Shown piece after piece: positions 2,912 through 18,424 of a stretch of 47,697 nucleotides of DNA. The DNA lies in NCBI GenBank assembly GCA_964464785.1, contig CAYXLS010000001.1, forward strand, positions 1-47,697, read 5' to 3'. The stretch comes from an uncultured Gammaproteobacteria bacterium. Its GTDB lineage: Bacteria; Patescibacteriota; Microgenomatia; UBA12405. The notes below the pieces were generated by a model. The model made no database searches. It was given only the letters and a program-made list of their open reading frames with translations, and had not been told where the DNA came from. The translations under genes were made by a program, and so were the position numbers. Position 1 is the first letter of the stretch. Each line of letters starts with the position of its first letter.

Positions 2912-4474
2912 TTATTTTATAATTTTATATTTATAAGCAGCTTTTAGGCGATGGGTTTTTAATTCGCCAAATTTAACGGTAGAAAAAAGCATGGTTGAAT
3001 AATTTTTAAAAATTTTGATTAAATACTTAAAGTCTTCAAAAGTTTTAATTTTTTTGAAAATTGTTGATGGTTTAATAAAAGGTCGGAAAAAGCGAGAAAT
3101 CATTAATTTGTTTTGAGCAATATTTCTTAGTTTTCGAATGTCGTTTACAGAAAGGTATTTGTTACCTAGCCCAACATATCCAGAAAAAGTTTTGCCAATA
3201 TTTTTACTATTAATATCAGTTTTTTTGAGCAAACCTTCTTTTTCTAATATTTTGGTAACATCAGTCTCTGGAAAAGGCATTAGTAATATAAAAACGACAA
3301 AATCTGAAAGTGATTTGATGGCATAATTAAAAGTAGTTTCAATGGCTTTTTTGGTTTCATAAGGGAATCCAATAATGTATGTTGAAAATGTCCAAAATCC
3401 GAGACTGTTGGCCAATTTGATAATTCTTTTAGCTTTTTTTAAGTTTAAATTTTTTCTAATAAATTTTTGAGTTGTGGGATGGCCTGATTCAATTCCAAAA
3501 GTTAGACGATAGCAACCACTTTTTTTCATTTTTAATAATAAATGTTTGTCTAGAGTCCATATCGCAATACCGTTTGGGCAAGTCCATTTTATGTCTAATT
3601 TTTTGGCAATTAGACCGTCACATATTTTCTCAAGCCGCTCTCGATTAACTGAAATATTGTCATCTAAAAAGTGAATTTCTCTAAAACCGTATCTTTTAAC
3701 TAAATGTTCAATTTCATTTACTATTCGTTCGGCACTAAAAGGTCGCCAACAACGTCCCCAAATAGTGGGAACTGCACAATAAATGCAATTATTGGGGCAA
3801 CCACGGCTAGTAACTACAGAGGTATAAGGGGTTCTCATAACATAAGTACCTTTGTTTTCTTTGCCTCCAGAAAGATAAATATCCATAGGTAAAAGATGGC
3901 GGGCTGGTAAGGGTAAAGAGTCTAACTTGGTAATAGGAAGTCTGGTTGGATTTAAAACAATTTGGCCTTGGTTATCTTTAACTGCTGTGCCTTTGATGTT
4001 TAGTAGATCGTGTTTGTTTACAAAATTTTTGACTATTTCTAAAATAGTATTTTCGCCTTCTCCAATAACTACAATGTCAACATTTTTATCAGTTAGTACA
4101 TCTTTGTAAAGGATAGATGCATGTGCGCCTCCAAAAACTACGAGAGTGTTGGAGTTGTGACTTTTGACAATTTTGGCAATATCGTGTGAATCAGAAGAAT
4201 AGGCAGTAAACATTGTACTAATTCCAACAATTTCGGGCTGATAATAGTTTAATTTTTCAACAATAGTTTCTTTTGATAGTCCAATGCGAGTGTGATTTTT
4301 GGTTTTTTTTATGGTGTTTATTCCTTCTGCAAGAGCGTCGATGATTGAAACATTGTATCCATTAGACTCCAAAATTGCCCCTATGTTGGCTAAACCAAGA
4401 GGAATATAAATACCCGGAGTGGTAGTATCGTTATTTCTAATTGTCATTGGCGGATAAAAAAGAAGAATTTTCAT
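2912..4474 (-). CDS. Class B (cobalamin-binding-domain) radical SAM enzyme
   Basis: 520 aa. N-terminus MKILLFYPP...IPLGLANIGAILESNGYNVSIIDA is typical of the B12-binding Rossmann domain in these enzymes. Canonical CX3CX2C in VTSRGCPNNCIYCAV. Confidence 0.8.
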   Translation of the reverse strand: MKILLFYPPMTIRNNDTTTPGIYIPLGLANIGAILESNGYNVSIIDALAEGINTIKKTKNHTRIGLSKETIVEKLNYYQPEIVGISTMFTAYSSDSHDIAKIVKSHNSNTLVVFGGAHASILYKDVLTDKNVDIVVIGEGENTILEIVKNFVNKHDLLNIKGTAVKDNQGQIVLNPTRLPITKLDSLPLPARHLLPMDIYLSGGKENKGTYVMRTPYTSVVTSRGCPNNCIYCAVPTIWGRCWRPFSAERIVNEIEHLVKRYGFREIHFLDDNISVNRERLEKICDGLIAKKLDIKWTCPNGIAIWTLDKHLLLKMKKSGCYRLTFGIESGHPTTQKFIRKNLNLKKAKRIIKLANSLGFWTFSTYIIGFPYETKKAIETTFNYAIKSLSDFVVFILLMPFPETDVTKILEKEGLLKKTDINSKNIGKTFSGYVGLGNKYLSVNDIRKLRNIAQNKLMISRFFRPFIKPSTIFKKIKTFEDFKYLIKIFKNYSTMLFSTVKFGELKTHRLKAAYKYKIIK

Positions 4475-4479
4475 TTTAG

Positions 4480-5934
4480 TTATTTTTTAGATTGAGAAAT
4501 TAAAAACATAAATATTTTGTTAATTAATTTGTTGTCGTACACTAATTTTCTAGTTAAATGAGCAAAAAGTGGAATACGGGTTAGTAAATAAAATATAGTT
4601 CCAAGTATTTTACCAAAACGAAATTGATAAAGTTTTCGTTCGTAAAGAGCAAAACCTTTTTTCATAACTCTAATTCTTTGATCTTTGGTAAACTCTTTGG
4701 TTTCAAATATAGGATTGATGTCACGATAGGAGATGTGTTTTAAATACTGGTTTTTGGGTATTAAAAAATGAGCATTTTTGATAGCCCAATCGTAAACTTC
4801 AGTACCTGGATATGGTACTAAATTATAAAAATTAACGTAATCACAATTTAAACTTTTTGCAAATGATAAAGTTTCCAGAGCTTCTGAATAGGTTTCTTCT
4901 TGATGTCCGATTATGAAATTAACGGCATGTTTAATCTTCGTTTGACTGGTTAATTTGACAGCTTGTCTAACTTGTTCAAGGGTAATGTTTTTTTTGATAC
5001 GGTTAAGTGTTTTTTGACTACCTGATTCACATCCATAAGCAATAAAGTAACAACCAGCTTTTTTGAGTTTTTTAAGTAATTTTAAGTTTATATTATTTAC
5101 TCTGATACCATTGTAAAGCTGAAATTTAATCTTTAATTTATTTTTGACTATAAGATCACAGATGTTTTGAGCTCGATTGATATCGAGAGTAAAACAATCA
5201 TCATTGATATCAAATCTCGAATATCCTTTTTTGTACCAATAAATTATTTCGTCAACAACATTTCTGGGACTTCGGGGTCGAAAACATTGCCCCATAGATA
5301 ATTTAACTGAACAATAATTACAACCGTAGGGGCAACCTCGAGAAGTGATTATAGGAATTATTTTTTCGTTATAGCAAGGATATTTTTTTATTTTAAAACT
5401 TTCATAATCTGGAAAAGAAAGATCGTCTAATTTATAAATAAGAGGTGCAGGGTTGTTAATGATTATTTTATTTTTATTTTTCCAAATTAAATTGGGAACA
5501 TGTGAATAATCTGGAATTTTTTGAGAAAAAACTTGTAAAAAATCTATAAAAGAATTTTCTGATTCACTATACATGGCAAAGTTAATTTTAGTTTCTTTTA
5601 AAATTGTTTCTTTTGTGGCGGAAACATGAGGACCTCCGAGAATAATGGGTATATTGGTGATAGTTTTAATCGTTTTAATGGTGGAATAGAGATAGTCATA
5701 GGCATAACTAAAACCAGTTACTCCGATAATGTTAGGAGAAAAATTCTTTATGGTAAGTTTTATTTTTTTTATATAATTTTTTTCAACACCACAATCTATT
5801 ATTTGAAATTGAAAATTATTTTTTTTAAGAACAGATACTAGATAGGCAATACCAACATGAGGGTGAATAGGTATTCCTTTTTCAGTACCAAACATCGATT
5901 TGATTTCGGGAATGATAAAAAGTACTTTCATCAA
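4480..5934 (-). CDS. Class B (cobalamin-binding-domain) radical SAM enzyme
   Basis: 484 aa. N-terminus VLFIIPE...HVGIAYLVSVLKKNNFQFQIIDC, then CX3CX2C in ITSRGCPYGCNYCSV. The first codon in the track is TTG at 5934; an ATG follows at 5931. Confidence 0.8.
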   Translation of the reverse strand: MMKVLFIIPEIKSMFGTEKGIPIHPHVGIAYLVSVLKKNNFQFQIIDCGVEKNYIKKIKLTIKNFSPNIIGVTGFSYAYDYLYSTIKTIKTITNIPIILGGPHVSATKETILKETKINFAMYSESENSFIDFLQVFSQKIPDYSHVPNLIWKNKNKIIINNPAPLIYKLDDLSFPDYESFKIKKYPCYNEKIIPIITSRGCPYGCNYCSVKLSMGQCFRPRSPRNVVDEIIYWYKKGYSRFDINDDCFTLDINRAQNICDLIVKNKLKIKFQLYNGIRVNNINLKLLKKLKKAGCYFIAYGCESGSQKTLNRIKKNITLEQVRQAVKLTSQTKIKHAVNFIIGHQEETYSEALETLSFAKSLNCDYVNFYNLVPYPGTEVYDWAIKNAHFLIPKNQYLKHISYRDINPIFETKEFTKDQRIRVMKKGFALYERKLYQFRFGKILGTIFYLLTRIPLFAHLTRKLVYDNKLINKIFMFLISQSKK

Positions 5935-5939
5935 ATAGA

Positions 5940-7019
5940 TTAATTTATTATTTCCATAGAAAAGTCTTTATTGAAAAATTTAGCGATTTTTTTGAAAATT
6001 CTAAAATAATTTTTTCCTAAAATATTACCAATAGTAGTGGCGATAACTCCTCTTAAACCAGAAGGCATTCCTAAAATTGTTTTTTCCCACAAACTATCAC
6101 AGTTTTGACAGTAAGAATTATATTTTAGATATGTTTTATCAATCATAGATTTTCTAAAATTAATCATTTTTCGATTATTCCAAATAGATTTTATAGTTTC
6201 TGTATTGACATTACCTAAAACATTTTGACCAAAAAAGTCTGAGCAACAAGCAACAACTCGACCATCCCAAAGTATTCCGAGTGACCCCCAAAGGTATGAG
6301 CATGGAGAAAAAATATTACTTAATTTTTTTGGGAAAAATTTTTTGGTGTTGTTAAATACACCTCCCCAGGTACTAGGTTTTCTAATTTGAATACTGTCAA
6401 GTGGTAAATTGGCAAAATTCATTTTAAATTTATCAATATTTTTTTGATAATCTAGGATTCCCTTTTGATTTAGTAAAAGAATTTGAAGTTCTGTTGTAAT
6501 ATTAGATTTAAGTTCTTTTTTAATCTTTAAAAATTCAACGACGTTTTTTAGTGTTGGTTCAAATTTACCGTTAATTCTAATTTTTTCATAAATTTTTTTG
6601 GTACAACCATCGAAAGAGAAATTGATCCAATCTAAACCAGATTTGATAATTTGTCGAGATAATTTTGGAGTTAAGATAGTTGCATTAGTTGATAAATAAG
6701 TTTTGATGCCATTATTTTTTGCATATTTAACCATTTGTGGGAATTTTGGATGTAAAAGAGACTCTCCAGAAATACAAAGAACTATATAAGATATATAGTT
6801 CTTACTTTGATCAATTATTTTTTTATACAGATTTAAGTCCATAAAACCGAGTTTATCTTGGCTTATAATAGAGTTAGGACACATAAGACATTTTAAATTG
6901 CATTTGTTTGTCGGTTCAATCCACAAAGCTAGTGGTTGGTAACAAAGTTTAATGATTTTGAGTTTATAACTAATAATTGAGCTTACGATTGCAATACTAT
7001 TTTTTATTTTTTTTATCAT
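5940..7019 (-). CDS. Radical SAM enzyme with a C-terminal SPASM/twitch-like Cys-rich extension
   Basis: 359 aa. CX3CX2C in EPTNKCNLKCLMCPN. C-terminal CSYLWGSLGILWDGRVVACC (CX12GX4C) followed by YCQNCD (CX2C). Confidence 0.75.
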   Translation of the reverse strand: MIKKIKNSIAIVSSIISYKLKIIKLCYQPLALWIEPTNKCNLKCLMCPNSIISQDKLGFMDLNLYKKIIDQSKNYISYIVLCISGESLLHPKFPQMVKYAKNNGIKTYLSTNATILTPKLSRQIIKSGLDWINFSFDGCTKKIYEKIRINGKFEPTLKNVVEFLKIKKELKSNITTELQILLLNQKGILDYQKNIDKFKMNFANLPLDSIQIRKPSTWGGVFNNTKKFFPKKLSNIFSPCSYLWGSLGILWDGRVVACCSDFFGQNVLGNVNTETIKSIWNNRKMINFRKSMIDKTYLKYNSYCQNCDSLWEKTILGMPSGLRGVIATTIGNILGKNYFRIFKKIAKFFNKDFSMEIIN

Positions 7020-7031
7020 AGTAGTTGAAAT

Positions 7032-8090
7032 TTAATTTTCAGGAGTACTGATATTACGTTGTGATTTAAAGAAATTAGCAATATATGAGAGAAGACTAGT
7101 TTTGACCATAAGGTGATTGGTTTTGAAAAGTGTAGTGTCTGTAATTTTTCTATTTTTTTGAATAATATATCTCTTTTTTAATATTTTAGATAGATTAGTT
7201 ATGTTCCAAATAATACCATGAAAAATATTTATAGAGGACTTAAACTTTCCAGTTATAAGAAGGAATAAACCTAGAGAAAACCACAAAACAAGATGTATCG
7301 GTAAAATTTTAATTAAATTTAAAATTGATAAGTTTTTGATTAATGTCTGGATATAATTCTTTGTACCGTGAAATCTGATTAAGTAATTATTAAAATCTTT
7401 ACTTACGATATTTTTAGTAGAAGAAAATTGATGATAAACGATGGATTTTGGACAAAAAAGATTGTGATAACCTGATAACCAAGTTCTCCAACCTAAATCA
7501 GTCTCTTCCATAAAGATAAAATAGTCTGGATCAAATTTACCCGCTTTTATAAAAGCATTTCTACTAATAAACATACCAGCAGATTTTGCTGCTAAAATAG
7601 GATAAATTTTGTTATATTGACCTTTATCAATGTTTCCATATGAGCTAATAGGTTTTAAAAATCCAAGATTTCCAAGAAATTCACCCACGTAATCAATACG
7701 TTTTTTTTGATTTAGAAGTAATAATTTGCATTGTATTACACCTATTTTTTCATTTATGTTAAAAAGGTTAACAGCTTTTAAAATCCAATTTTTATCAACT
7801 TCAGTATCATTGTCTAAAAATGCAATATATTTACCTTTACTGATTTTAAATCCTTCGTTACGTGCAAAAGCTGGACCATAATTTTTTGAAAGTTTTACAA
7901 ATTTAATCTTTGTTAAATATTTAATAAATTTTTTTTTAATAAAACCAATACTATTATCAGAAGAAGCATTGTCAGATACTATTATTTCGTAATTATGGTA
8001 ATTATTTTTTAGAATTGAAGAAATACAATTTTTTAAAAAGATTTTACCATTATAATTAATAATAATTACAGAAACTAATGGATATTTCAT
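7032..8090 (-). CDS. Family 2 glycosyltransferase (COG1216 / rhamnosyltransferase-like), with a C-terminal hydrophobic segment
   Basis: 352 aa. VSVIIINYNG, SDNASSDNS and the FLDNDTE DxD-type motif. C-terminal helix ILPIHLVLWFSLGLFLLITG. Confidence 0.8.
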   Translation of the reverse strand: MKYPLVSVIIINYNGKIFLKNCISSILKNNYHNYEIIVSDNASSDNSIGFIKKKFIKYLTKIKFVKLSKNYGPAFARNEGFKISKGKYIAFLDNDTEVDKNWILKAVNLFNINEKIGVIQCKLLLLNQKKRIDYVGEFLGNLGFLKPISSYGNIDKGQYNKIYPILAAKSAGMFISRNAFIKAGKFDPDYFIFMEETDLGWRTWLSGYHNLFCPKSIVYHQFSSTKNIVSKDFNNYLIRFHGTKNYIQTLIKNLSILNLIKILPIHLVLWFSLGLFLLITGKFKSSINIFHGIIWNITNLSKILKKRYIIQKNRKITDTTLFKTNHLMVKTSLLSYIANFFKSQRNISTPEN

Positions 8091-8746
8091 TTTATAATTT
8101 TAACAGCAAAAAGCCCAAAAGAATATTTTGGAGAATAATAATTTAAAATTTGAAATAAAGCATTGATCGCATAAAAAAAAGGACGTGGATAAAATTTAAT
8201 ATTTTGATAAAATTTTCCATTTATAAGGCTATCGACATTGTTTGATGGTTTATAAAAAATTTTTAAACCACTAACACCATAAACTTTAAAACCATTTTTT
8301 TTAAGTTCAGTAATTGACCATCCAGATAAATGTTTTTGATATTTATTGTTGTCAACTAAATCCATAGGAAAATAATTATTAGGAGTAGATAGAATAACTT
8401 TTTTGCTTGCCCATTTTTGAGCTAATTTTAATATTTTTAAACCATTTTTTTTAGAAAGATGTTCAAGGACTTCAATTAGAATTACGGCATCAAAACTTTT
8501 GGGTTTAAAATTTAAATTTAAAATATTTTTTTGAAGATATTTAGTATGAATGTTTTGTTTTTGAGAAATATCTAAATATGGTTTAAAAAGTTCAACCCCA
8601 ACGCTGTATTCAATATTTTTAATATTTTTCAATGGAGATGAAGGGCCACAACCAAGATCAAGTACAGTTTTACAATTAACTAATTCTTTTTGGAGACAAT
8701 AATCAATTTTATGAACGATTTTATAGATGATTTTTTTTATACTCAT
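8087..8746 (-). CDS. Class I SAM-dependent methyltransferase
   Basis: 219 aa. Motif I VLDLGCGPSS and motif II-like AVILIEVLEHL. 4-nt ATGA overlaps with both neighbours. Confidence 0.75.
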   Translation of the reverse strand: MSIKKIIYKIVHKIDYCLQKELVNCKTVLDLGCGPSSPLKNIKNIEYSVGVELFKPYLDISQKQNIHTKYLQKNILNLNFKPKSFDAVILIEVLEHLSKKNGLKILKLAQKWASKKVILSTPNNYFPMDLVDNNKYQKHLSGWSITELKKNGFKVYGVSGLKIFYKPSNNVDSLINGKFYQNIKFYPRPFFYAINALFQILNYYSPKYSFGLFAVKIIK

Positions 8747-10134
8747 TTGATCTTTTTTTTATAAGGAGCTCTTGAAGAAGAACCTCTTATTAAAACTGAT
8801 ATACCTTCGATAATATCGGTTTTAATTTTGTTAAAAGATGTTATATCACTTATAATGCGATTAAAAATATATTTTGGTCTTAAATAAAATTTTCTAAATA
8901 TATTTTTTCTTTGTAAATAAACCCAATCTTTATTTAAAGTTTTTGGTATGTAAATTGGATAAACGCCAGAATAACCTTTACCAAGTTTACCAAGTGCAAA
9001 ATTATCAATAAAATTTTCATTTACTATTCCTTCTTTTAAAGCATATAACCATAATTTTGATCCAGGGAAAGGGGTAGCGATTGAAACTCCAATTATTTTA
9101 AAATCATTTTTTAGAACAAAATCAATAGTTTTTTGGACATTTTTTGGTTTTTCGGTTGGATGTCCGAACATAAAAAAACCATTTGCTTCAATTTTATATT
9201 TGTTACAAAGTTTTATAGTATTAATAATTTTTTTGTTTGAAAAACGTTTTAAAACAATTTCATTTCTTATTCTCTCGTCTCCTGATTCAATCCCAAAAGT
9301 AAGGCTATAACAACCAGCTTGACTCATTAATTTTAATAGGTTATTGTCAACCAAGTCAACTCGAGTATAACCAGCCCAACGATATTTTTTATTTTGTTTT
9401 ATTAATTGATGGCAAAAATCAAATATAAATTTGCGATTGATAGTTAATGAATCATCTTGGAAAAGATAATCACCCCCACAATGTTGGGATAATGAATCCA
9501 TTTCTTTAATAACGTCTTCTACTTGTCGACATCTGACTAAATTGCTGATACATGGTCGACTACAATAATAACAATTAAAAGGACAACCTCGGGTAGCCAT
9601 AATTGAAGCTGTTCGATGATATTTTGAAAGATCTAACAAATGATATGCAGGCCATGGAATTAGTGATAAATCTTTTGGAGTTTCTCCAATTATAATTTTG
9701 TCTATTTTTTGATGATTAATGATTTTTTGATAAGCTTTTAGAAAACTATACTCAGCCTCTCCGGTAATCCCAAAATCAAAATATTTAATTCTAGAGATAA
9801 ATTTTGGATCAGCACTAATATGAGGACCTCCAAGACAAATTTTAATTTTTTTATTATTTTTTTTAATTTTTTTAGCTAAAGTAACGGTTCCTTGTAAAAG
9901 TGGAGTCATGGATGAAAAACCAACTATTAATGGATTTTCATTTTTAATAATTTTTAAAGTTTCTTTTAAATTTTGTTTTTGAGCTCCAATATCGATTACT
10001 TTGACAGAAATGTTATGTTTTTCTAAAACAGAAGCTAAATACAAAATACCTAAAGGAGGATAACTAACGTCAAGTACTTGAGGAATGTTATTTTGATAAT
10101 AAACTGGTGGATAAATTAATATTACTTGAGTCAT
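8743..10134 (-). CDS. Class B (cobalamin-binding-domain) radical SAM enzyme
   Basis: 463 aa. N-terminus VILIYPP...PPLGILYLASVLEKHNISVKVIDI. CX3CX2C in ATRGCPFNCYYCS. Confidence 0.8.
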   Translation of the reverse strand: MTQVILIYPPVYYQNNIPQVLDVSYPPLGILYLASVLEKHNISVKVIDIGAQKQNLKETLKIIKNENPLIVGFSSMTPLLQGTVTLAKKIKKNNKKIKICLGGPHISADPKFISRIKYFDFGITGEAEYSFLKAYQKIINHQKIDKIIIGETPKDLSLIPWPAYHLLDLSKYHRTASIMATRGCPFNCYYCSRPCISNLVRCRQVEDVIKEMDSLSQHCGGDYLFQDDSLTINRKFIFDFCHQLIKQNKKYRWAGYTRVDLVDNNLLKLMSQAGCYSLTFGIESGDERIRNEIVLKRFSNKKIINTIKLCNKYKIEANGFFMFGHPTEKPKNVQKTIDFVLKNDFKIIGVSIATPFPGSKLWLYALKEGIVNENFIDNFALGKLGKGYSGVYPIYIPKTLNKDWVYLQRKNIFRKFYLRPKYIFNRIISDITSFNKIKTDIIEGISVLIRGSSSRAPYKKKIK

Positions 10135-11273
10135 TAATTATCAAACTTAATATCTAAAGCACAACAACGAAAACATGCAGGGATTATTTTGGATTTTAAA
10201 AATATTTTTCTAAAGTTATTTACTTTATTACTATGCCAAATACCCATTAATGATTGTTGGTGAATATTACCAGCAATAAAACCATGACAAATTTCAACAT
10301 CACCATTACCACGAAGAAAAATTTGTCTAAACGGAGATACACATTTAGATTTTTTACTTGGAAAAACTCCAGTATAATATTTTTCTAAATCTACTTTATC
10401 GTTGATTGAAATTATTAGTTTTTTATTTTTTATTGAAGTGATTTTTTTAATTTTATCTTTAATGGTATTAATTTCTTGTTGATTAAAATAATTTTTTTGA
10501 AAACCTAAATCTTGACCCCAAATATCATTTCCAGTTTTGTATTTTTTATAAAATTTATTTTGGTTTGATTTAATATCATTGTAGTAATAAAAAAAATGAC
10601 TAATAGACCATTGATCAACTTTTATCTTCTTTGCCAAAAAGTATATTTTATTGAAATTTAAATAATTTGATTTGTTGATAACGGTAGCGATTCTGATATT
10701 AGGAAAATGATTTGTTCCTTTTAATTTAATTACTTTTTTTATTCCTTTTATTATTTTATTAAATGAACCCTTGACGTAACCTCGAAGATATTGCGTTTGT
10801 TCATCTGGACCATCAAGCGAAACAGCTAAGAAATCAAGGCCAGAGTTAACAATATTTGAGGCATATTTTTCTAAGAGTAAACCATTTGTAACTAAACCAG
10901 TTGGAATTTTTTTACTATGAAGATATTTAATAATTTTAAAAATTTCTGGATGTAATAATGGTTCACCTCCTGAAAGTTGAAAAGAAATACCTTTTTTATA
11001 GCCCTCTTGTGCAATTTTTTTTATATCTGAAAAAGTCAAAATATTGGTGTATTTTTGTCGAGAATTACCGACATGACACATAGGACATTTAAAATTACAT
11101 TGTTCGGTAATAAAACAATTTATTAATCTAGGAAAATTTGTTGCTTTTTTATTAAAAAAAAATGAATCTGTAAGAGTATTTATAGCAACCTTGGGGTATT
11201 TGATTGCAAGTTCTATTTTTTTAAATAAAGATATATTAATCATGGAAGTATGATTTAGTAATAATATTGGCAT
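10134..11273 (-). CDS. Radical SAM enzyme with a C-terminal SPASM/twitch-like Cys-rich extension
   Basis: 379 aa. CX3CX2C in ITEQCNFKCPMCHV. C-terminal CVSPFRQIFLRGNGDVEIC (CX12GX4C) and CFRCC. The internal ATG at 11243 (MINISLF) would cut the 38-nt overlap with the upstream gene to 8 nt, so the start is uncertain. Confidence 0.75.
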   Translation of the reverse strand: MPILLLNHTSMINISLFKKIELAIKYPKVAINTLTDSFFFNKKATNFPRLINCFITEQCNFKCPMCHVGNSRQKYTNILTFSDIKKIAQEGYKKGISFQLSGGEPLLHPEIFKIIKYLHSKKIPTGLVTNGLLLEKYASNIVNSGLDFLAVSLDGPDEQTQYLRGYVKGSFNKIIKGIKKVIKLKGTNHFPNIRIATVINKSNYLNFNKIYFLAKKIKVDQWSISHFFYYYNDIKSNQNKFYKKYKTGNDIWGQDLGFQKNYFNQQEINTIKDKIKKITSIKNKKLIISINDKVDLEKYYTGVFPSKKSKCVSPFRQIFLRGNGDVEICHGFIAGNIHQQSLMGIWHSNKVNNFRKIFLKSKIIPACFRCCALDIKFDN

Positions 11274-12372
11274 TTTGAGTACCGAATTTTTTTAGAGCAA
11301 AAGAACGACAATTTAATTTCATATCAGTAATGATATTAGGTTTTTGTATAAGTATGTTTATTATTTTTAATAGATTTACTTTGGTTGGATTTATTGAAAT
11401 TCCAACTTGTGGAGAATACATTTTGGAAACAGAACCTTTGTTAGTTGTAATTACAGGTGTTCCACACATTAATGATTCCATTACTATCATTGGTTGAGCT
11501 TCAGGAGCTAATGAAGGTAAAATTGTAAAATCATTGTATTGGTAATATTTTATAATTTCCAATGGTTGTTTTTTCCCTAATATTTTAAAGTTTTTTTGAT
11601 TAGTACTTGACTTTTTTAATTTTTTATAATCCGGGCCGTCACCGATGATAGTAATAACTATCTTTGGATTTTTTTTAGCTAAAAAAAGTAAATTGAATAC
11701 TCCTTTCATACTAATAATTCGACCGACAAATAACAAATTAAGAAGAAATTTAGAATTATTTTTTTTTAATATTGGTTTATAAACTTGAGGATCAAGCCAG
11801 TGATGATATTGACATATTTTTTCTTTATTTATACCTATTTTTTGTAATTGAATGCTTGATTTTTGGCTAACAGTAAGTATTTTATGAAATCCTTGGAAAG
11901 TCCATTTAAAGATTTTTGTAGATATTTTTGATATATCAAGATTTGGATATAAATAATGTGTACTGACAATTAATCTGATATTTTTAATATATAAACAAGA
12001 GATACGAGTGATAAAAGCTGCGGCAAATCCATGAGCATGAATGACATCAACATTTTTTTTATTTTTTAATAAATAAATAAAGCTATTTAAAAGAAGCCCA
12101 GGGATTATATAAATAAATTGTAATAAAGGATAAGAGGTAGTAATGTCGAATATTTTTTTACCAAACCACCAATATCGATGAATTGTTAAATTTTTAGATT
12201 TTTCAACTTTTAAATATTTTTTAACTTTGGTTGTTAGTGGTTTATATGTAAGAACAGTAGTATTATAATTAAGTTTGGTTAAGTGTTCAGTTAAAAGATT
12301 TAAGTGACTTTCAACTCCGCCAATATTAGGTCTGAAAAATGGACAAATAATTAATATGTTTTTTGTTTTCAT
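11236..12372 (-). CDS. GT-B fold glycosyltransferase, family 4 (GT1-superfamily) type
   Basis: 378 aa. N-terminus ILIICPFFRPNIGGVESH. C-terminal EX7E motif in APEAQPMIVMESLMCGTPVITT. Confidence 0.75.
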   Translation of the reverse strand: MKTKNILIICPFFRPNIGGVESHLNLLTEHLTKLNYNTTVLTYKPLTTKVKKYLKVEKSKNLTIHRYWWFGKKIFDITTSYPLLQFIYIIPGLLLNSFIYLLKNKKNVDVIHAHGFAAAFITRISCLYIKNIRLIVSTHYLYPNLDISKISTKIFKWTFQGFHKILTVSQKSSIQLQKIGINKEKICQYHHWLDPQVYKPILKKNNSKFLLNLLFVGRIISMKGVFNLLFLAKKNPKIVITIIGDGPDYKKLKKSSTNQKNFKILGKKQPLEIIKYYQYNDFTILPSLAPEAQPMIVMESLMCGTPVITTNKGSVSKMYSPQVGISINPTKVNLLKIINILIQKPNIITDMKLNCRSFALKKFGTQNANIITKSYFHD

Positions 12373-13392
12373 TTAGAAATTCCACCAAAAAGTTCTAAGT
12401 TTACAATTTTGGCATAATTTTAAATTATTAGTGTCAATATTTAAATGTTTTTTTCTAATATATTCAAAATTTTTATTTTTCCATATTGATGCAATAGAAT
12501 CTTTTTTGGCATTACCTAGTATAATTTCGCCTTCAATATCTTGACAACAAAGAGAAATGGTTCCATCCCAATTAATTAACATTTCAGTAAAAGGAAGTCG
12601 ACAGGGAGATCGACTAAAAGAAACATAATTGTTTATGGATAAGTCAAGATTTAATTTTTTTTTGTTTGACCAATCATGGATTTGTGAGATACAAACTTTA
12701 TCAACTAGTTTTTTCCATTTATTGAGAAATTTTTTAGTTTCTTTTTTATTAAGATTAAATTCTAAAAAGTCTATAATAATTTTCGGTTTATTTGTTTTTA
12801 GCTTTTTTTTAAGACTTATTAAATATTTTATATTTTTTTGAACTAAGTCATAATTTAATCCAATTCTTATTTTTTGATATGTTTTTTTGGTAAAAGCGTC
12901 AACACTGATAAAAATTTCGTCTAAACCGGAATTAATAATATCTTTAGCAATTTTTGGAGTTAATAGTGTACCGTTGGTATTGGTAGATACTCGTAAAATA
13001 TTTTTTGATTTAGCATATTTGACTTTCCAGGAAAAATTTTTATCTGTTAATGGTTCGCCAAAATTATGTAAATTTATATATTTTATATTTAATTTTTCTG
13101 TCTGATTTATAATATTTTTATATAATTTTTTTGACATTGTTCCTTTTTTCCTTTTCATCGTTGGATAAGGACACATAAAACATCGACCATTACAAATATT
13201 AGTGTTTTCGATTCTAAGGCTAAAAGGTTTATTTCTATATTTATTTATTACTAGGGCTATTTTCTTTTTTAAAAAAAATTGGTAGATGTTATTTTGTAAA
13301 AATATCTTTTTTGATAAAAACCAGTTAAACATTTTTTTTATAGGATAATTGTACAGAATAGTGTCTAGTATTATTTTGTTTATTGTCGCCAT
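12373..13392 (-). CDS. Radical SAM enzyme with a C-terminal SPASM/twitch-like Cys-rich extension
   Basis: 339 aa. CX3CX2C in ENTNICNGRCFMCPY. C-terminal CRLPFTEMLINWDGTISLCC (CX12GX4C) and LCQNCK (CX2C). Confidence 0.75.
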   Translation of the reverse strand: MATINKIILDTILYNYPIKKMFNWFLSKKIFLQNNIYQFFLKKKIALVINKYRNKPFSLRIENTNICNGRCFMCPYPTMKRKKGTMSKKLYKNIINQTEKLNIKYINLHNFGEPLTDKNFSWKVKYAKSKNILRVSTNTNGTLLTPKIAKDIINSGLDEIFISVDAFTKKTYQKIRIGLNYDLVQKNIKYLISLKKKLKTNKPKIIIDFLEFNLNKKETKKFLNKWKKLVDKVCISQIHDWSNKKKLNLDLSINNYVSFSRSPCRLPFTEMLINWDGTISLCCQDIEGEIILGNAKKDSIASIWKNKNFEYIRKKHLNIDTNNLKLCQNCKLRTFWWNF

Positions 13393-14396
13393 TGTTGTCG
13401 ATTTAATTGTTTTAATATTCCTAACTTATTTTTTATAGTGTTGATAGTATAAAGATAGAGAGTAATAAAACAAGCTACTGGATGTAAAAACCAAGCGACA
13501 TCAGGTTTGTTGTAAAAACCCCTAATACTATCGAATAAGGGGGGAAATAAAAAAATTGTGTACAAAGAAAATTTTATAACACCTGATTTATTGGTATTGT
13601 CCCAATTGTATTGCCTTAAATTTTGATAATAAAAATAATCAGTGATACGACGATTTTGTTTACGAATAAATTTTTTGAATGAACTTTCACAAAAAGTATG
13701 GATAATCCCCTGTTTTACTTTGGCAAAATAAATTGATTTTTTTGATTTGTTTAAATATTGACTGATAATGTCTATGTCAAAAAGATAATCAGATTTTAAA
13801 TTTTTTTTGAGAAAGTCAGCTCTAAAAATTGTGCCATTGGCACCAATAGTGGGAATTGGTAATTTTGGTTTCAGTTCTGCTTTAATATAATTTGGATAGT
13901 CTATTTGATTTATTTTTAAACCAGTCCATTTGAAATTTATAAAATTTTTCCGATCATAAACGCCAGTTACAAAAGCATAAGGATCATTGATGCCAAAAAG
14001 AGCTGAGTATCTTTCGATGTAACCGGCATTTTTTCGATAAGTAAAAAATAATGGTTCAGATCCGATTAAAGAGGTGTCTTTGTCTAGTATATCTAAATTG
14101 GTTTTCAACCAAGATTTTGTTGGCAATATATTGTCTGAATCAATTAAGGCAATGTATTTGCCTTTAGCGATTTTGACTCCAACTGCTTTGCCAGCTTCAG
14201 CGGTTTTGAGTAGGTTTGAGACTATTTGGGCATGATATTTTTGGGCTATTTGGAGGGTTTTGTCGGTGGAACCACCGTCAGATATTATTATTTCATAATC
14301 TTTAGAAATGATAGATTGTTTTTTGATGGATTTTAGACAAATTTCTAAAACCTTTTCAGCATTGAGAGTAGGGATAACAAATGAAACTTTTATCAT
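13380..14396 (-). CDS. Family 2 glycosyltransferase
   Basis: 338 aa. VSFVIPTLNAEKV, ISDGGSTDKT and LIDSDN (DxD). Hydrophobic C-terminal region. Confidence 0.8.
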   Translation of the reverse strand: MIKVSFVIPTLNAEKVLEICLKSIKKQSIISKDYEIIISDGGSTDKTLQIAQKYHAQIVSNLLKTAEAGKAVGVKIAKGKYIALIDSDNILPTKSWLKTNLDILDKDTSLIGSEPLFFTYRKNAGYIERYSALFGINDPYAFVTGVYDRKNFINFKWTGLKINQIDYPNYIKAELKPKLPIPTIGANGTIFRADFLKKNLKSDYLFDIDIISQYLNKSKKSIYFAKVKQGIIHTFCESSFKKFIRKQNRRITDYFYYQNLRQYNWDNTNKSGVIKFSLYTIFLFPPLFDSIRGFYNKPDVAWFLHPVACFITLYLYTINTIKNKLGILKQLNRQQWRQ

Positions 14397-15886
14397 GAGA
14401 AATCTTTTAATTTTTTAATATATTTAAAAGCATAATTTGTCAGATGCTTTATATCATCAAAGTTTCTAATTGAGATAATTTTTTTTATAATAAATTTTGG
14501 AGTAATTACACCTTTAAATAAATTTTGAATTAACTCTATTTGAGTTTGTGGTGGGATAGGTGATTTAATTATGGGTTGACGCATATCGTAATCATTCCAA
14601 TTAGTAGTCAAAAGTAAATTGTTTTTTTGACAATAGTTAAAAAGTGGAGTTCCGGGATAAGGAATAAGTAAAGTTGCTTGAAGACTGTCAGCTAAGTTGT
14701 TTTGAAAGATAAAACGAGCTAGATTTAAGGTTTTTTGAGATTCGCGAAGTGTTTCATTTGGATAACCAATCATAGTGGTGACATGTGGTTCAAGTTTAGC
14801 TTTTTTGGTCATTTTTAAAGTTTTTAGGGCAGCTGAAGTCTTTTCGTTTTTGTTGACAAATAAGAGGGTTTTTTGATTAGCAGATTCCAGGCCATATAGA
14901 ATAAATCTAAAGCCAGATTTTTTCATCAAAAAATATTCTTTTTGACTTAAGGCTCCAAAGCGCATATTACAGCCTAAAGCTACTTTTTTGTTTAGACCTC
15001 GGGTTATAAGTTGATTACATAAATCATTTAACCATTTACCAATAGGAAGTGTCCCAGAATCATCAAAAATTTCTTTAACACCAAAGTTATAAACTAAATT
15101 TTCAATTTCTTTAAGAGTGTGTTTAACTGAAAATGAGTGAAAATTTTTGCCTGGAAACAAGGTAACCCAGCTCCAAAAAGTGCATTTTCCCCACCAACAA
15201 TCTCGACCAGACATGATGTAACTACCGGGTTTGTATTTATAGTTAGTATTGTTATAAGCATAAAGTTGCCATTGAGTTAATTTTCTGTCAATTATAGGTA
15301 ATTTAGCTAAGTTAATTGATTTTTGGAGTTTATAAATTTTATCTTTAGGAGCATTGCCTTTATTAATAAGATCAATTAATTCTTCAAGTAAAAAATCATA
15401 ATGACCACCAATTAATACATAGTCTACTTTACAATTATCAATTGATTCTTGAGGAAGTGCCGTGACATGGTCACCCATAAGGACTACAAGTGGTTTCCAG
15501 CGACATTCTTTTTTAATTTGATTGATTATTTGCCAATGCTTTTTGACGACTGGAGTTTTAGTTTCAATAGCAATTAAATCTGGTTTATTTTTTTTAAGCT
15601 CTTTAAACCAAACTTTATAACTAAGATTTTTAGCAATGGCGTCATCCCAAAATATTTTTAAACCTTGTTTACTAAGTAAAGAAGCAGCATAAGCTGGAAC
15701 TATTGGGTAAATGACGTTGCCGGTATTAGTCCATTGGAATTGACGATTTTGAGATAAAAAGGCAGTTCCCTTTGGAGATTCTAGTGGTGGATAAGAAAAA
15801 GAAATAGATTTAACCACCAATGTATTTGCCAGTTTTTTGGTCAAACGAGTGGGGTTTAAATTTGACGTCTTTTTTGGATAAACCAT
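14393..15886 (-). CDS. Cobalamin-binding-domain radical-SAM-like protein with an incomplete Fe-S cysteine motif
   Basis: 497 aa. The layout matches the other class B enzymes (N-terminal Rossmann-like region, central barrel region). The cluster motif reads SGRDCWWGKCTFWSW, that is C-X4-C-X2-W, with TGG where a third Cys codon is expected. The 77-nt overlap with the upstream gene would shrink to 8-11 nt if GTG (15817) or TTG (15820) is the real start. Confidence 0.6.
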   Translation of the reverse strand: MVYPKKTSNLNPTRLTKKLANTLVVKSISFSYPPLESPKGTAFLSQNRQFQWTNTGNVIYPIVPAYAASLLSKQGLKIFWDDAIAKNLSYKVWFKELKKNKPDLIAIETKTPVVKKHWQIINQIKKECRWKPLVVLMGDHVTALPQESIDNCKVDYVLIGGHYDFLLEELIDLINKGNAPKDKIYKLQKSINLAKLPIIDRKLTQWQLYAYNNTNYKYKPGSYIMSGRDCWWGKCTFWSWVTLFPGKNFHSFSVKHTLKEIENLVYNFGVKEIFDDSGTLPIGKWLNDLCNQLITRGLNKKVALGCNMRFGALSQKEYFLMKKSGFRFILYGLESANQKTLLFVNKNEKTSAALKTLKMTKKAKLEPHVTTMIGYPNETLRESQKTLNLARFIFQNNLADSLQATLLIPYPGTPLFNYCQKNNLLLTTNWNDYDMRQPIIKSPIPPQTQIELIQNLFKGVITPKFIIKKIISIRNFDDIKHLTNYAFKYIKKLKDFS

Positions 15887-16787
15887 ACAGGAATAGTATA
15901 CCGTAATAAATATGAGTGATGGGAATTGTTAGAGTGGCTAAAAGAGAGGGCAAAAGCTTATTTTTCTTAATTAGAAATATTACTAAAGTTATAAGTAATA
16001 TTGATAAATATATATATAATGGAATATACAATAAAATATTGTTAAATATTAAAATATTTAAAATTAATAATAATAAGTAAAAGACAAAAAAAGAAGGTAA
16101 AAGATATCCGATTTTAAAAGAAGTTTCAGGGAATTTTTTAGCAAAAAATCCACGTTGAATGGCGTATCGAGTAATTTGTTGAAGGTGAGGCATAATAACT
16201 GAGCGACGATGATGGAAAACTACTAAAGATGGGTGATAATAAATTTTTAAATTAAATTTTTTAGTTAGATTTAGACAAAGAACAGTATCTTCTCCTGGCC
16301 AATATTGATTATCAAAAGAACCAGCTTTAAAAAAGTCTGTTTTTTTGACAATTAAATTAACACTGGGATAATCTTCAACAAATCTTGATGGTTTAATACT
16401 ATTTCGATAAACTCCAGCTCCACCACTACCAAGAAAACTAGACCAAACTAGACCAGAAGATTGTTGATAAAGATTGTCTTTAGGTGGAGTTAGACATGGA
16501 CCACAAAAAGAAGCGTAATTGGGGTGTTTAGTTACTAGTTTTTGGGCTTGTTTAAAATAATTTTTTGAAGGAAAAGAATCATCATCAAAAAAAACTAAGT
16601 AATCACCCTTAGCTTTTTTAGCACCTAGATTTCTTTTTTCTGATGGATTAGCAGAACCCGAAACCTTATCGGTAATAACTAAGATTTCAAAATTTTTAAT
16701 TGTTTGTTTTTTTAAGGCTATAATAGTTTCTTGGAGATAACTATTTTCCTTACGTATAGGTATAATTATAGAAAAGATAATTTTCAT
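15810..16787 (-). CDS. Family 2 glycosyltransferase with a C-terminal multi-helix membrane anchor
   Basis: 325 aa. FSIIIPIRKEN, the FFDDDS DxD motif and WPGEDTVLC. The last roughly 110 aa contain several hydrophobic helices (LLPSFFVFYLLLLILNILIF..., LSILLITLVIFLI...). Confidence 0.75.
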   Translation of the reverse strand: MKIIFSIIIPIRKENSYLQETIIALKKQTIKNFEILVITDKVSGSANPSEKRNLGAKKAKGDYLVFFDDDSFPSKNYFKQAQKLVTKHPNYASFCGPCLTPPKDNLYQQSSGLVWSSFLGSGGAGVYRNSIKPSRFVEDYPSVNLIVKKTDFFKAGSFDNQYWPGEDTVLCLNLTKKFNLKIYYHPSLVVFHHRRSVIMPHLQQITRYAIQRGFFAKKFPETSFKIGYLLPSFFVFYLLLLILNILIFNNILLYIPLYIYLSILLITLVIFLIKKNKLLPSLLATLTIPITHIYYGILFLYGLSKKDVKFKPHSFDQKTGKYIGG

Positions 16788-16794
16788 ATAGTGT

Positions 16795-16815
16795 TTATAT
16801 TATGTCATAATATAA
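16795..16815. promoter_or_regulatory. Perfect 21-bp palindrome centred in the 35-bp divergent gap. Candidate back-to-back extended -10 promoters and/or an operator
   Basis: TTATATTATG-T-CATAATATAA (10+1+10) is centred at 16805, which is also the midpoint of the 16788-16822 gap. It reads TGnCATAAT on both strands. Each copy lies 11 nt upstream of its start codon (ATG at 16823 on plus, ATG at 16787 on minus). Confidence 0.4.
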
Positions 16816-16822
16816 GTATTTA

Positions 16823-17626
16823 ATGAAATTAAAAGAAAAAGTTGAAAATATTTTCCGTACATTTGTAGAAAGTATCATTAATAATGATAATAATAATTAT
16901 CATGGATATTTAGAGGGAACCTTAGGAATAATTAACTCAAAAATATATATGATGGGTATTCACGAGGAGATTAATTTATGTAATAAATATTTTAAAAAAA
17001 ATGGAAATGTGTTAGATTTTGGAACTGGTGCTGGTTTACATAGTTGGATTTTATCTTTTAGAAATTTTCAAATAGATGGAATAGATATAGATAATTTTGG
17101 GAAAATTGATGGGAATACTAGAGCTACATTAAATATGGCAAGAGATCAAAAAGTATTATGGAATAAATTATCAAATTACAATTCAAATTTAAAATTTAAA
17201 CATTATTCCGGAAATATTCCTTATAAAGGAAATTATTTTGATGGAGTGATTGCGTCTGCAGTTTTAGAACACATACCAATAAAAATACGAAACAAGATAA
17301 TTAAAGAAATATATAGAGTTATTAAACCAGGCGGATATCTTTTAATATCAAGATTACCTAGAAAATATTCTTATACAGAAGCATTATGTCGAATATTCGG
17401 TTTAGGCCATCATCAAAATCTTTTTTTAAAAAGCGAATCGATAAAAATGATAACAGAAGTAGGATTTATTGTAGAAAAATTTTGGTTTACAGACTTATTC
17501 CCATCTTATCCTGTTTCTATTGCTAATAAATTATTCAAAATATTTAATTTTTTAGAGCCTATTTTAATTAAAACACCAATAAAACTTATTTCACACGATT
17601 TTAGAATTTTAGCAAAAAAATTATAA
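16823..17626 (+). CDS. Class I SAM-dependent methyltransferase
   Basis: 267 aa. Motif I VLDFGTGAGLHS, DGVIASAVLEHIP and IKPGGYLLIS. It is the only plus-strand gene inside the minus-strand array. Confidence 0.7.
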   Translation: MKLKEKVENIFRTFVESIINNDNNNYHGYLEGTLGIINSKIYMMGIHEEINLCNKYFKKNGNVLDFGTGAGLHSWILSFRNFQIDGIDIDNFGKIDGNTRATLNMARDQKVLWNKLSNYNSNLKFKHYSGNIPYKGNYFDGVIASAVLEHIPIKIRNKIIKEIYRVIKPGGYLLISRLPRKYSYTEALCRIFGLGHHQNLFLKSESIKMITEVGFIVEKFWFTDLFPSYPVSIANKLFKIFNFLEPILIKTPIKLISHDFRILAKKL

Positions 17627-18424
17627 GCCTGTATTAACTCTCATTTCTAATTCAGGATCATAGACCCATTTTCTTTTATTTTTATCATCGTAGTAATGAA
17701 GTATCCTAAGTCGGTAAAATACAGCAAGGGCATCAATTAAACATTGCCAGACGACTTTAAATCCAGTGGCGTGAGTTAGACTAGAAAAGTCATAAGTTAG
17801 TTTTATGGGTGATTCATAAATGTTTCTAAAGCCTAGATGGTTTGCCACGGATAACATTTCTAGGTCAAAAGCATAATTTTTTATAAGAAGACGAGGTAGG
17901 ACTTTGGTTAATACTTGTCTTTTAAAAATTTTAAGACCAGCTTGGGTGTCATAGATATTAATGCCTAATAAAAATCTAGCAATTAAATGCCCGCCAAAAC
18001 TAATTATCTTTCTATCTAGGGGGTAGTTTACTTTTGAGGCGGGATGTCGTTTTGAGCCAACAATAATATCGGCGTTATACCACTCCATGTGCTCTAGAAT
18101 CATCGAAATACCATTTGGTTCTATTTCCATCCCAGAATCGATAAAAGCAATATAATCCCCTTTTGTTTTGGCCATACCGTAACGGATGGCATAGCCTTTG
18201 CCGTGATTATTTTGATAACCAAAAACTTTTAGATTTTTTAATTTTAATTTTTTAATTAACTTATATGATTTATCGACATTGATACCATCGACAACGGCAA
18301 TGATTTCAAAGTCATATCGAACTTGTTCAAGTGAATGATAAATATTAGTAATGTCGTTTAAAATAGTTTTTTCTTGTTTGTAGACCGGGATAATAACAGA
18401 TAAGAAATGGGTGTTATTTTTCAT
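17621..18424 (-). CDS. Polyprenyl-phosphate glycosyltransferase (DPM1 / ALG5 / GtrB-CsbB-like GT2)
   Basis: 267 aa. LSVIIPVYKQEKT, NHGKGYAIRYGMAKTKGDYIAFIDSGMEIEP, DTQAGLKIFKR and FDLEML. These match the signature blocks of dolichyl/undecaprenyl-phosphate sugar synthases. Confidence 0.6.
   Translation of the reverse strand: MKNNTHFLSVIIPVYKQEKTILNDITNIYHSLEQVRYDFEIIAVVDGINVDKSYKLIKKLKLKNLKVFGYQNNHGKGYAIRYGMAKTKGDYIAFIDSGMEIEPNGISMILEHMEWYNADIIVGSKRHPASKVNYPLDRKIISFGGHLIARFLLGINIYDTQAGLKIFKRQVLTKVLPRLLIKNYAFDLEMLSVANHLGFRNIYESPIKLTYDFSSLTHATGFKVVWQCLIDALAVFYRLRILHYYDDKNKRKWVYDPELEMRVNTGL

Follow-up and report, generated by a model that had tools for sequence, protein, structure and literature searches.

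A conserved dyad in a 35-bp divergent gap as a probable two-way promoter for a reversed methyltransferase cassette in a Shapirobacteria glycan operon

The perfect palindrome in the middle of a 35-bp gap between two divergent genes is a real, conserved and functionally constrained element, and the gap as a whole probably acts as a minimal bidirectional sigma-70-type promoter of an accessory methyltransferase cassette, judging from the sequence comparisons described below. The window (the whole stretch of DNA that was analysed, 47,697 nucleotides) covers the opening 47.7 kb of a contig of 90.9 kb in assembly G000, a 0.98-Mb MAG of 233 contigs that is 89.5% complete and whose genus relatives measure 0.4–1.3 Mb. 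The closest named record to the GT2 protein encoded beside the gap is from Candidatus Shapirobacteria bacterium S2_F12 (85% identity). The genome contains three instances of sigma-70 region 2, and a search for a TBP came up empty; it is therefore bacterial, and a reading of the boxes in the gap as archaeal TATA boxes was rejected on these grounds. About 85 kb of the bin, carried on 59 contigs of at least 60% GC (for example C85, C95, C106, C114 and C186), has a GC content of 65–75% as against 30–35% in the main genome. These high-GC contigs are likely binning contamination, and contigs above 42% GC were left out of the statistics.

The gap between the two start codons was read directly from the window sequence. 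The minus-strand gene starts at 16787 (CAT at 16785–16787) and the plus-strand gene at 16823, so that positions 16780–16830 read ...ttttCAT ATAGTGTTTATATTATGTCATAATATAAGTATTTA ATGaaa.... The gap and the features around it are as follows.

16788–16822: gap of 35 bp between the divergent start codons
16795–16815, no strand: perfect 10+1+10 palindrome TTATATTATG-T-CATAATATAA, with arms at 16795–16804 and 16806–16815 and the T at 16805
2912–16787, minus strand: 12 tightly coupled glycosyltransferase/radical-SAM genes downstream of the gap, separated by at most 12 nt or overlapping
15810–16787, minus strand: GT2 glycosyltransferase GT2-325 (325 aa), first gene of this 12-gene rSAM/GT block and a genus core gene (65–86% identity)
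16823–17626, plus strand: class I SAM-dependent methyltransferase (267 aa), with Pfam Methyltransf_23/11/25 and generic methyltransferase matches in PDB
17621–18424, minus strand: GT2-267 (267 aa), polyprenyl-phosphate sugar synthase-like, last gene of the upstream array and convergent with the methyltransferase gene
16788–17620, plus strand: accessory cassette of 833 bp (the 35-bp gap plus the methyltransferase gene), absent from all same-genus loci examined (14 of 14)

The centre of the palindrome at 16805 is also the midpoint of the gap, and the next pair outwards (T16794/G16816) is mismatched. Within the palindrome, TGTCATAAT on the plus strand (16803–16811) and TGACATAAT on the minus strand (16807–16799) each end 11 nt upstream of their respective ATG. 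The sequence-only reading had described this palindrome, its exact centring and the symmetric elements 11 nt from the two ATGs, and every coordinate that it gave is correct. Self-complementarity of the gap is 24/35, compared with 2–16 in the other short divergent gaps of the genome, and in no other short divergent gap of this genome do the two boxes merge to form a long perfect palindrome.

The cassette interrupts a very long operon-like array. Between positions 2912 and 50817 of the contig (C1) lie 39 minus-strand genes, spanning about 48 kb with gaps of at most 27 nt and broken only by the methyltransferase gene, which is the only plus-strand gene of the array; 27 of them form the upstream array from 50817 to 17621, again with gaps of at most 27 nt. 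In relatives without the methyltransferase the same genes would form one uninterrupted array. In all 14 same-genus loci (L020–L033) the GT2-267 orthologue lies directly upstream of the GT2-325 orthologue on the same strand, neither the methyltransferase nor the gap is present, and the stop codon of the first gene touches or overlaps the start codon of the second, for example ...ACTGGAAAATAATTATG or ...GGTGCATGACC; three further loci (L043–L045) have the same arrangement and are possible duplicates of some of those genomes. This direct junction in the relatives identifies the 833 bp as a reversed accessory cassette in an otherwise roughly 48-kb operon. The stop codons of the methyltransferase gene and GT2-267 share TTATAA (17621–17626), leaving no spacer or terminator between them, and according to the gene calls the tight convergent overlap is kept in all orthologous loci that bear the methyltransferase. 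As for the enzyme itself, the protein scored below every cut-off when compared with the NCBIfam equivalogs. The idea that it is a DNA-methyltransferase with the palindrome as its methylation target was rejected, its domains pointing to class I methyltransferases of the small-molecule type.

Of the 132 species representatives in the order, G000 alone encodes a close homologue of the enzyme; the other 131 lack it and hold only paralogues of 32–36% identity in other contexts. A protein search yielded eight methyltransferases of at least 43% identity, and the orthologous gaps were taken from metagenome contigs by exact-protein look-ups. All methyltransferases in this identity range that have readable flanks are found in the order GT2-325 (leftward), gap, methyltransferase (rightward) and GT2-267 (leftward), and the gap measures 34–35 bp in six of the seven lineages with such homologues. 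Homologues of 41% identity or less, including those from a metagenome scan with the methyltransferase alignment, sit in other, unrelated gene contexts, as do the homologues P0009 and P0012. The methyltransferases are 43–65% identical to one another and the flanking glycosyltransferase genes 69–94%. In trees of the flanking proteins from both sides, the methyltransferase-bearing loci are scattered so that at least three gains or losses are forced, and the sister of the window is G003, which is without the cassette (support 100/99).

The orthologous gaps, written so that the shared core stands in the middle where there is one, compare as follows.

Window, 35 bp: ATAGTGTTTAT ATTATGTCATAAT ATAAGTATTTA
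L034, 34 bp: TTGTAATTGAT ATTATGTCATAAT GTGTCTAGAA
L036, 34 bp: TTATTATTAGT ATTATGTCATAAT ATTTTTATAA
L035, 45 bp, before a GTG start: ATTTAAACTTAAGAT ATTATA cgaattatttgc CATAAT ATAAGA
L038, L039 and L042 (group B), 34 bp: AGTGTAGATTATCAGTTTTATTGTAAAATATCTA
L040 and L041 (group B), 34 bp: two changes relative to L038
16799–16811 of the window, no strand: conserved core ATTATG-T-CATAAT, invariant in the window, L034 and L036

The palindrome arms are 10 bp long in the window, 6 bp in L034 and 7 bp in L036, which makes the 13-bp dyad, not the 21-bp palindrome, the conserved unit; the outer four pairs are found in this genome only. The sequence-only reading had tied its case to conservation of the palindrome in orthologous loci, and this expectation is borne out for the 13-bp core in the window, L034 and L036, but not for the full 21 bp, which vary. 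In these three lineages 13 of 13 core columns are invariant compared with 7 of 21 flank columns (P about 6e-7), while the third codon positions of their methyltransferase genes are 51–54% identical. Such conservation of the core argues for function. In L035 both boxes are retained and have been pushed apart by extra bases, so that TGcCATAAT lies exactly at -12 to -7 of the GTG start, and the minus strand retains a consensus TATAAT after the halves have split. The deeper group B (L038–L042) shows the same arrangement and gap length and has no dyad; its gap matches at 34 of 34 positions between lineages with 55% identity at the third codon positions of their methyltransferase genes, and its minus-strand box is ambiguous. 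The box facing the methyltransferase gene begins at -17 in the window, -16 in L034 and L036, -12 in L035 and -11 in group B. On this comparative evidence the gap is clearly under purifying selection in both groups.

Palindrome length by itself says less. With a perfect arm of at least 10 and a loop of up to 4 as the criterion, shuffled versions of the 35-bp gap contain such a palindrome with P = 0.0013 (mononucleotide shuffling) or 0.0003 (dinucleotide shuffling), and 297 intergenic regions on low-GC contigs (58 kb) contain 15 of them compared with 1.4 ± 1.0 after shuffling. The majority of these 15 resemble terminators and are located between convergent or co-directional genes, and just two occur in divergent gaps. 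Viewed across the genome, a palindrome of this length stands out less. As about one chance palindrome per genome is to be expected, length alone is no proof of function and the case must rest on conservation and on the sequence that the palindrome encodes. Elsewhere in the genome, a 30-bp perfect palindrome, TGTAGAGACGCCATATATGGCGTCTCTACA, is present in two identical copies 4.5 kb apart (C14:6665–6694 and C14:11142–11171), and another at C157:1268–1328 has 29-bp arms; these may be mobile-element ends or repeat elements.

It could be argued from these numbers that the palindrome is a chance outcome of AT-rich DNA and that the true promoters are to be sought in other places, such as the coding regions on either side. 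Chance alone would supply some 1.4 perfect palindromes with arms of 10 or more in the intergenic DNA of this genome, the outer four pairs are without conservation, and a near-perfect E. coli-type promoter (TTGACA-16-TG-GATAAT, 11/12 matches) is present on the plus strand at 16345–16372, antisense inside GT2-325. We regard such an origin as very improbable, since the core has stayed invariant although neutral sites are near saturation and the 34–35 bp gap length has been kept across lineages down to 43% methyltransferase identity. The internal match counts for little in a genome without -35 usage, where it is probably meaningless, and it could be a source of antisense RNA.

What the core encodes becomes clear from the promoters of the genome as a whole. 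Upstream regions of 653 long ORFs, called crudely, show a sharp peak of TATAAT/TAAAAT starting 14–11 nt upstream of start codons and nearly no GGAG, GAGG or AGGA. De novo expectation maximization (EM) on 319 upstream regions gave the motif tGnTAwAAT (logo taTGnTAwAAT), in which G-14 is the most informative column (60% compared with 12% in the background) and the start of the hexamer peaks at -12, followed by -11 and by -13 to -15. In 159 aligned promoters there is zero information from -40 to -18, which supports, on statistical grounds, promoters that work without a -35 element; the earlier proposal that -35 elements fall on the opposite gene's start codon thus has no genome-wide support, although the sequence in question (TTCATA) is present at 16783–16788. 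Sites of at least 5 bits are found at -16 to -10 upstream of 40% of divergently oriented genes, compared with 3–6% at control positions. Shine-Dalgarno-like 4-mers are at background (4–9% versus 3–8%), although the 16S rRNA 3' ends of four genus relatives read CACCTCCTTT and keep CACCUCCUUU; the relatives were used because a 16S rRNA gene was sought in this MAG and not found. The default of the lineage thus looks like an extended -10 promoter with predicted mRNAs that begin at or next to the start codon, which suggests that translation in this Shapirobacteria genus is as a rule leaderless or coupled. Divergent gaps cluster at 29–38 bp (11 cases), most of them with back-to-back -10 boxes facing each way, for example C6:12524–12559, C1:62201–62239, C58:2407–2440 and C8:3554, and this looks like the minimal spacing for two such divergent promoters.

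Searching the genome's own motif in the window gap gave TGnCATAAT as the best match on each strand, in agreement with the sequence-only reading, which had singled out the same element. The predicted promoter features of the gap are as follows.

16803–16811, plus strand: predicted extended -10 element TGTCATAAT of the methyltransferase gene, best PWM site (6.3 bits), with CATAAT at -17 to -12 from the ATG
16799–16807, minus strand: predicted extended -10 element TGACATAAT of the GT2 gene and the 12-gene block, best PWM site (6.4 bits), with the hexamer at -17 to -12
A16818, plus strand: predicted transcription start 7 nt after the hexamer, giving a 5-nt leader AUUUA, from the sequence and the usual -10-to-start spacing
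A16792, minus strand: predicted transcription start (A on the minus strand), giving a 5-nt leader ACUAU, from the sequence

The two scores of 6.3 and 6.4 bits compare with a median of 4.8 for real genes and with a 95th percentile of 6.4 for shuffled sequence. The plus-strand element was also picked up, with its TG, by a generic sigma-70 scan, which over the region as a whole returned 20 promoter-like matches compared with 17.9 in shuffles and so no enrichment. On both strands TG stands at -15/-14, one base before the hexamer, as in extended -10 promoters, and the two -10-like elements overlap within one pseudo-symmetric sequence, sharing the self-complementary TGnCA at 16803–16807. The symmetry can be traced to the motif itself, because T-15 G-14 n-13 C-12 A-11 is its own reverse complement with the symmetry axis at -13.

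We propose that each strand carries an extended -10 element TGnCATAAT and that the pair interlocks around position -13. The TG of one element would be the complement of the CA that opens the hexamer of the other, with A-11 paired to T-15, so that interlocking would cost each promoter only a T-to-C change at -12 and would yield the 13-bp dyad ATTATG-T-CATAAT. That C-12 partners the more informative G-14 of the other strand would explain both the non-consensus C and the dyad, and the outer four pairs would be A/T-rich discriminator sequence that matches by coincidence in this genome. Transcripts would begin at A16818 on the plus strand and A16792 on the minus strand, 26 bp apart and with 5-nt leaders. 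The methyltransferase gene has no plausible driver other than the plus-strand promoter, and the minus-strand promoter would restart transcription, and hence translation, of the GT2 gene and the 11 genes coupled to it, all of which would have lost their upstream coupling where the reversed cassette sits. Given the 5-bp overlap of the elements, a polymerase bound in one direction is proposed to exclude one facing the other way. Mutual exclusion of the two polymerases is a reasonable expectation from this overlap, and activity in both directions and polymerase competition are likewise predicted from the sequence. A shared bidirectional promoter with symmetric extended -10 elements and very short leaders had been suggested before, and the suggestion fits the PWM sites, the conservation of the core and the common architecture of the genome. 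A new start at GT2-325 is favoured by the fact that this gene is here without upstream coupling and without a Shine-Dalgarno sequence. Against the two-way promoter, the hexamers start at -17, outside the main genome peak of -15 to -11, and position -17 holds about 7.7 of 214 expected sites where the background is about 4; few sites have C as the first base of the hexamer (5% in the EM model); and the same AT-rich gap contains other -10-like hexamers (TAATAT, TATAAG/TATAAA and TATATT).

Alternatively, the core may drive the methyltransferase gene only, most transcription of the block coming from the 27-gene array by read-through over the antisense methyltransferase gene, and the symmetric half being a by-product of -10 symmetry or supporting weak incidental transcription only. 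In the 14 relatives the block continues the upstream operon, its stop and start codons abutting or overlapping where no promoter is needed, and here the convergent stops share TTATAA without a spacer and no terminator-like site is present on the minus strand from 17621 to 16787. As no terminator separates the upstream array from the block, read-through is possible, and the sequence-only claim that the gap is the only DNA able to drive the 12-gene block goes too far. One-way use of the core is nonetheless unlikely, if not negligibly so: its left half is as invariant as its right half in three lineages, the minus strand of L035 keeps its consensus TATAAT after separation of the halves, and GT2-325 has neither a Shine-Dalgarno sequence nor coupling in a genome whose uncoupled genes typically have their own -10 near the start. 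Head-on polymerase traffic through the methyltransferase gene would also, on general grounds, make read-through inefficient. We see still less reason to read the dyad, alone or in addition, as the operator through which a dimeric DNA-binding protein would control one or both of the divergent promoters, although it is a perfect 6-1-6 dyad with a central base that is also invariant in three lineages, and although its overlap with both predicted -10 elements places it where repressors classically bind. The earlier suggestion of an operator finds neither a regulon nor a regulator: the 13-mer has a single exact occurrence in the genome, similar sequences show no tendency to lie upstream of genes, and no regulator gene is found among the neighbours. 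The spacing of the half-sites is not conserved, for L035 keeps both boxes at a greater distance, which fits independent promoters and not a protein site of fixed spacing, and group B has the same arrangement and gap length without the dyad. Two copies of the genome's promoter motif fully explain the dyad.

The palindrome might instead form an RNA hairpin for processing, stability or attenuation, or be a recombination site that mobilises the cassette, both of which we consider highly unlikely. The predicted folds of -5.4 (plus strand) and -3.6 kcal/mol (minus strand) do stand out from shuffles (z = -2.1 and -3.4), but the hairpin is weak and AU-only, has neither a GC stem nor a U tract, and is lost in the orthologues (-1.1 to -2.6 kcal/mol). 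An intrinsic terminator was ruled out, the element having an AU-only stem and no T run and sitting between start codons, not after a stop. Recombination would account for the presence/absence polymorphism of the cassette and its three or more changes on the flanking-gene trees, but no integrase or transposase is encoded in the window, and the way in which the methyltransferases group by identity and by gap type (A and B) appears to mirror the tree of the flanking genes, a pattern that would suggest vertical descent with losses rather than mobility of the cassette.

The two-way promoter that we favour for this gap belongs to a known kind. Bidirectional promoters based on -10 symmetry are established in E. 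coli and Salmonella, where divergent starts are mostly 18 bp apart and also 7, 10, 12, 23 or 29 bp (bioRxiv 10.1101/2020.01.31.928960; PMC10268837; PMC12825309), and polymerases compete at them only if one direction is strongly activated (PMC12825309). Such symmetric promoters often go with mRNA pairs (Warman, Forrest, Wade, Grainger and colleagues), and in M. tuberculosis closely juxtaposed divergent promoters and leaderless mRNAs are common (PMC3898074). The gap resembles the promoters described by Warman et al. in being a short pseudo-symmetric sequence with a -10 element on both strands, predicted divergent transcripts and proposed binding in one direction that excludes the other. E. coli promoters of the commonest class have hexamers that overlap one another (-7T pairs with -11A) and starts 18 bp apart, whereas in the window the hexamers are adjacent, the TG extension overlaps the first two hexamer bases and the axis is at -13. 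The predicted starts of the window, 26 bp apart, fall just outside the working definition of 7–25 bp and between reported classes of 23 and 29 bp. As in extended -10 (TGn) promoters, TG stands at -15/-14 before the hexamer, and the genome at large has G-14 as its top column and no -35 signal; such promoters are a minority class in model bacteria but the apparent default here, and the hexamer in the gap is CATAAT, not TATAAT. Leaderless architecture, with a -10 element about 12 nt before the start codon, occurs in Actinobacteria, Deinococcus-Thermus and others. This genome shares with it the -12 peak and the missing Shine-Dalgarno sequence, and the plus-strand boxes of L035 (-12) and group B (-11) have the leaderless position of the hexamer at about -12 to -7. 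The boxes of the window lie 5 nt further out, outside that position, and would give 5-nt leaders that are not strictly leaderless. In the collection of papers searched, none describes leaderless architecture in CPR/Patescibacteria. The present case is thus the established -10-symmetry principle in a different register and in a CPR genome.

The mechanism is already known from model bacteria, and as a single locus the gap is an illustration of it. The two-way promoter would explain how a surface-glycan operon of about 48 kb tolerates a reversed accessory gene. Of somewhat more interest is the lineage-wide architecture of promoters and translation, for which the analysis offers a concrete model in an uncultured CPR lineage: tGnTAwAAT, no -35 element, no Shine-Dalgarno sequence, and starts at or a few bases from the start codon. 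Such a model would better the calling of start codons and operons in these genomes. We put forward tentatively, as a possibility and together with its consequences, that in this Shapirobacteria lineage the start of translation is tied to the start of transcription, genes being either (near-)leaderless from a -35-less TGnTAwAAT or translationally coupled. If this were true, any gene entering an operon in reverse would need to carry a two-way promoter so that the genes behind it could be restarted, the interlocked TGnCA dyad would be the minimal form of such a promoter, and mutual exclusion of the polymerases would set a fixed ratio of expression between the methyltransferase and the 12-gene glycan-modification block.
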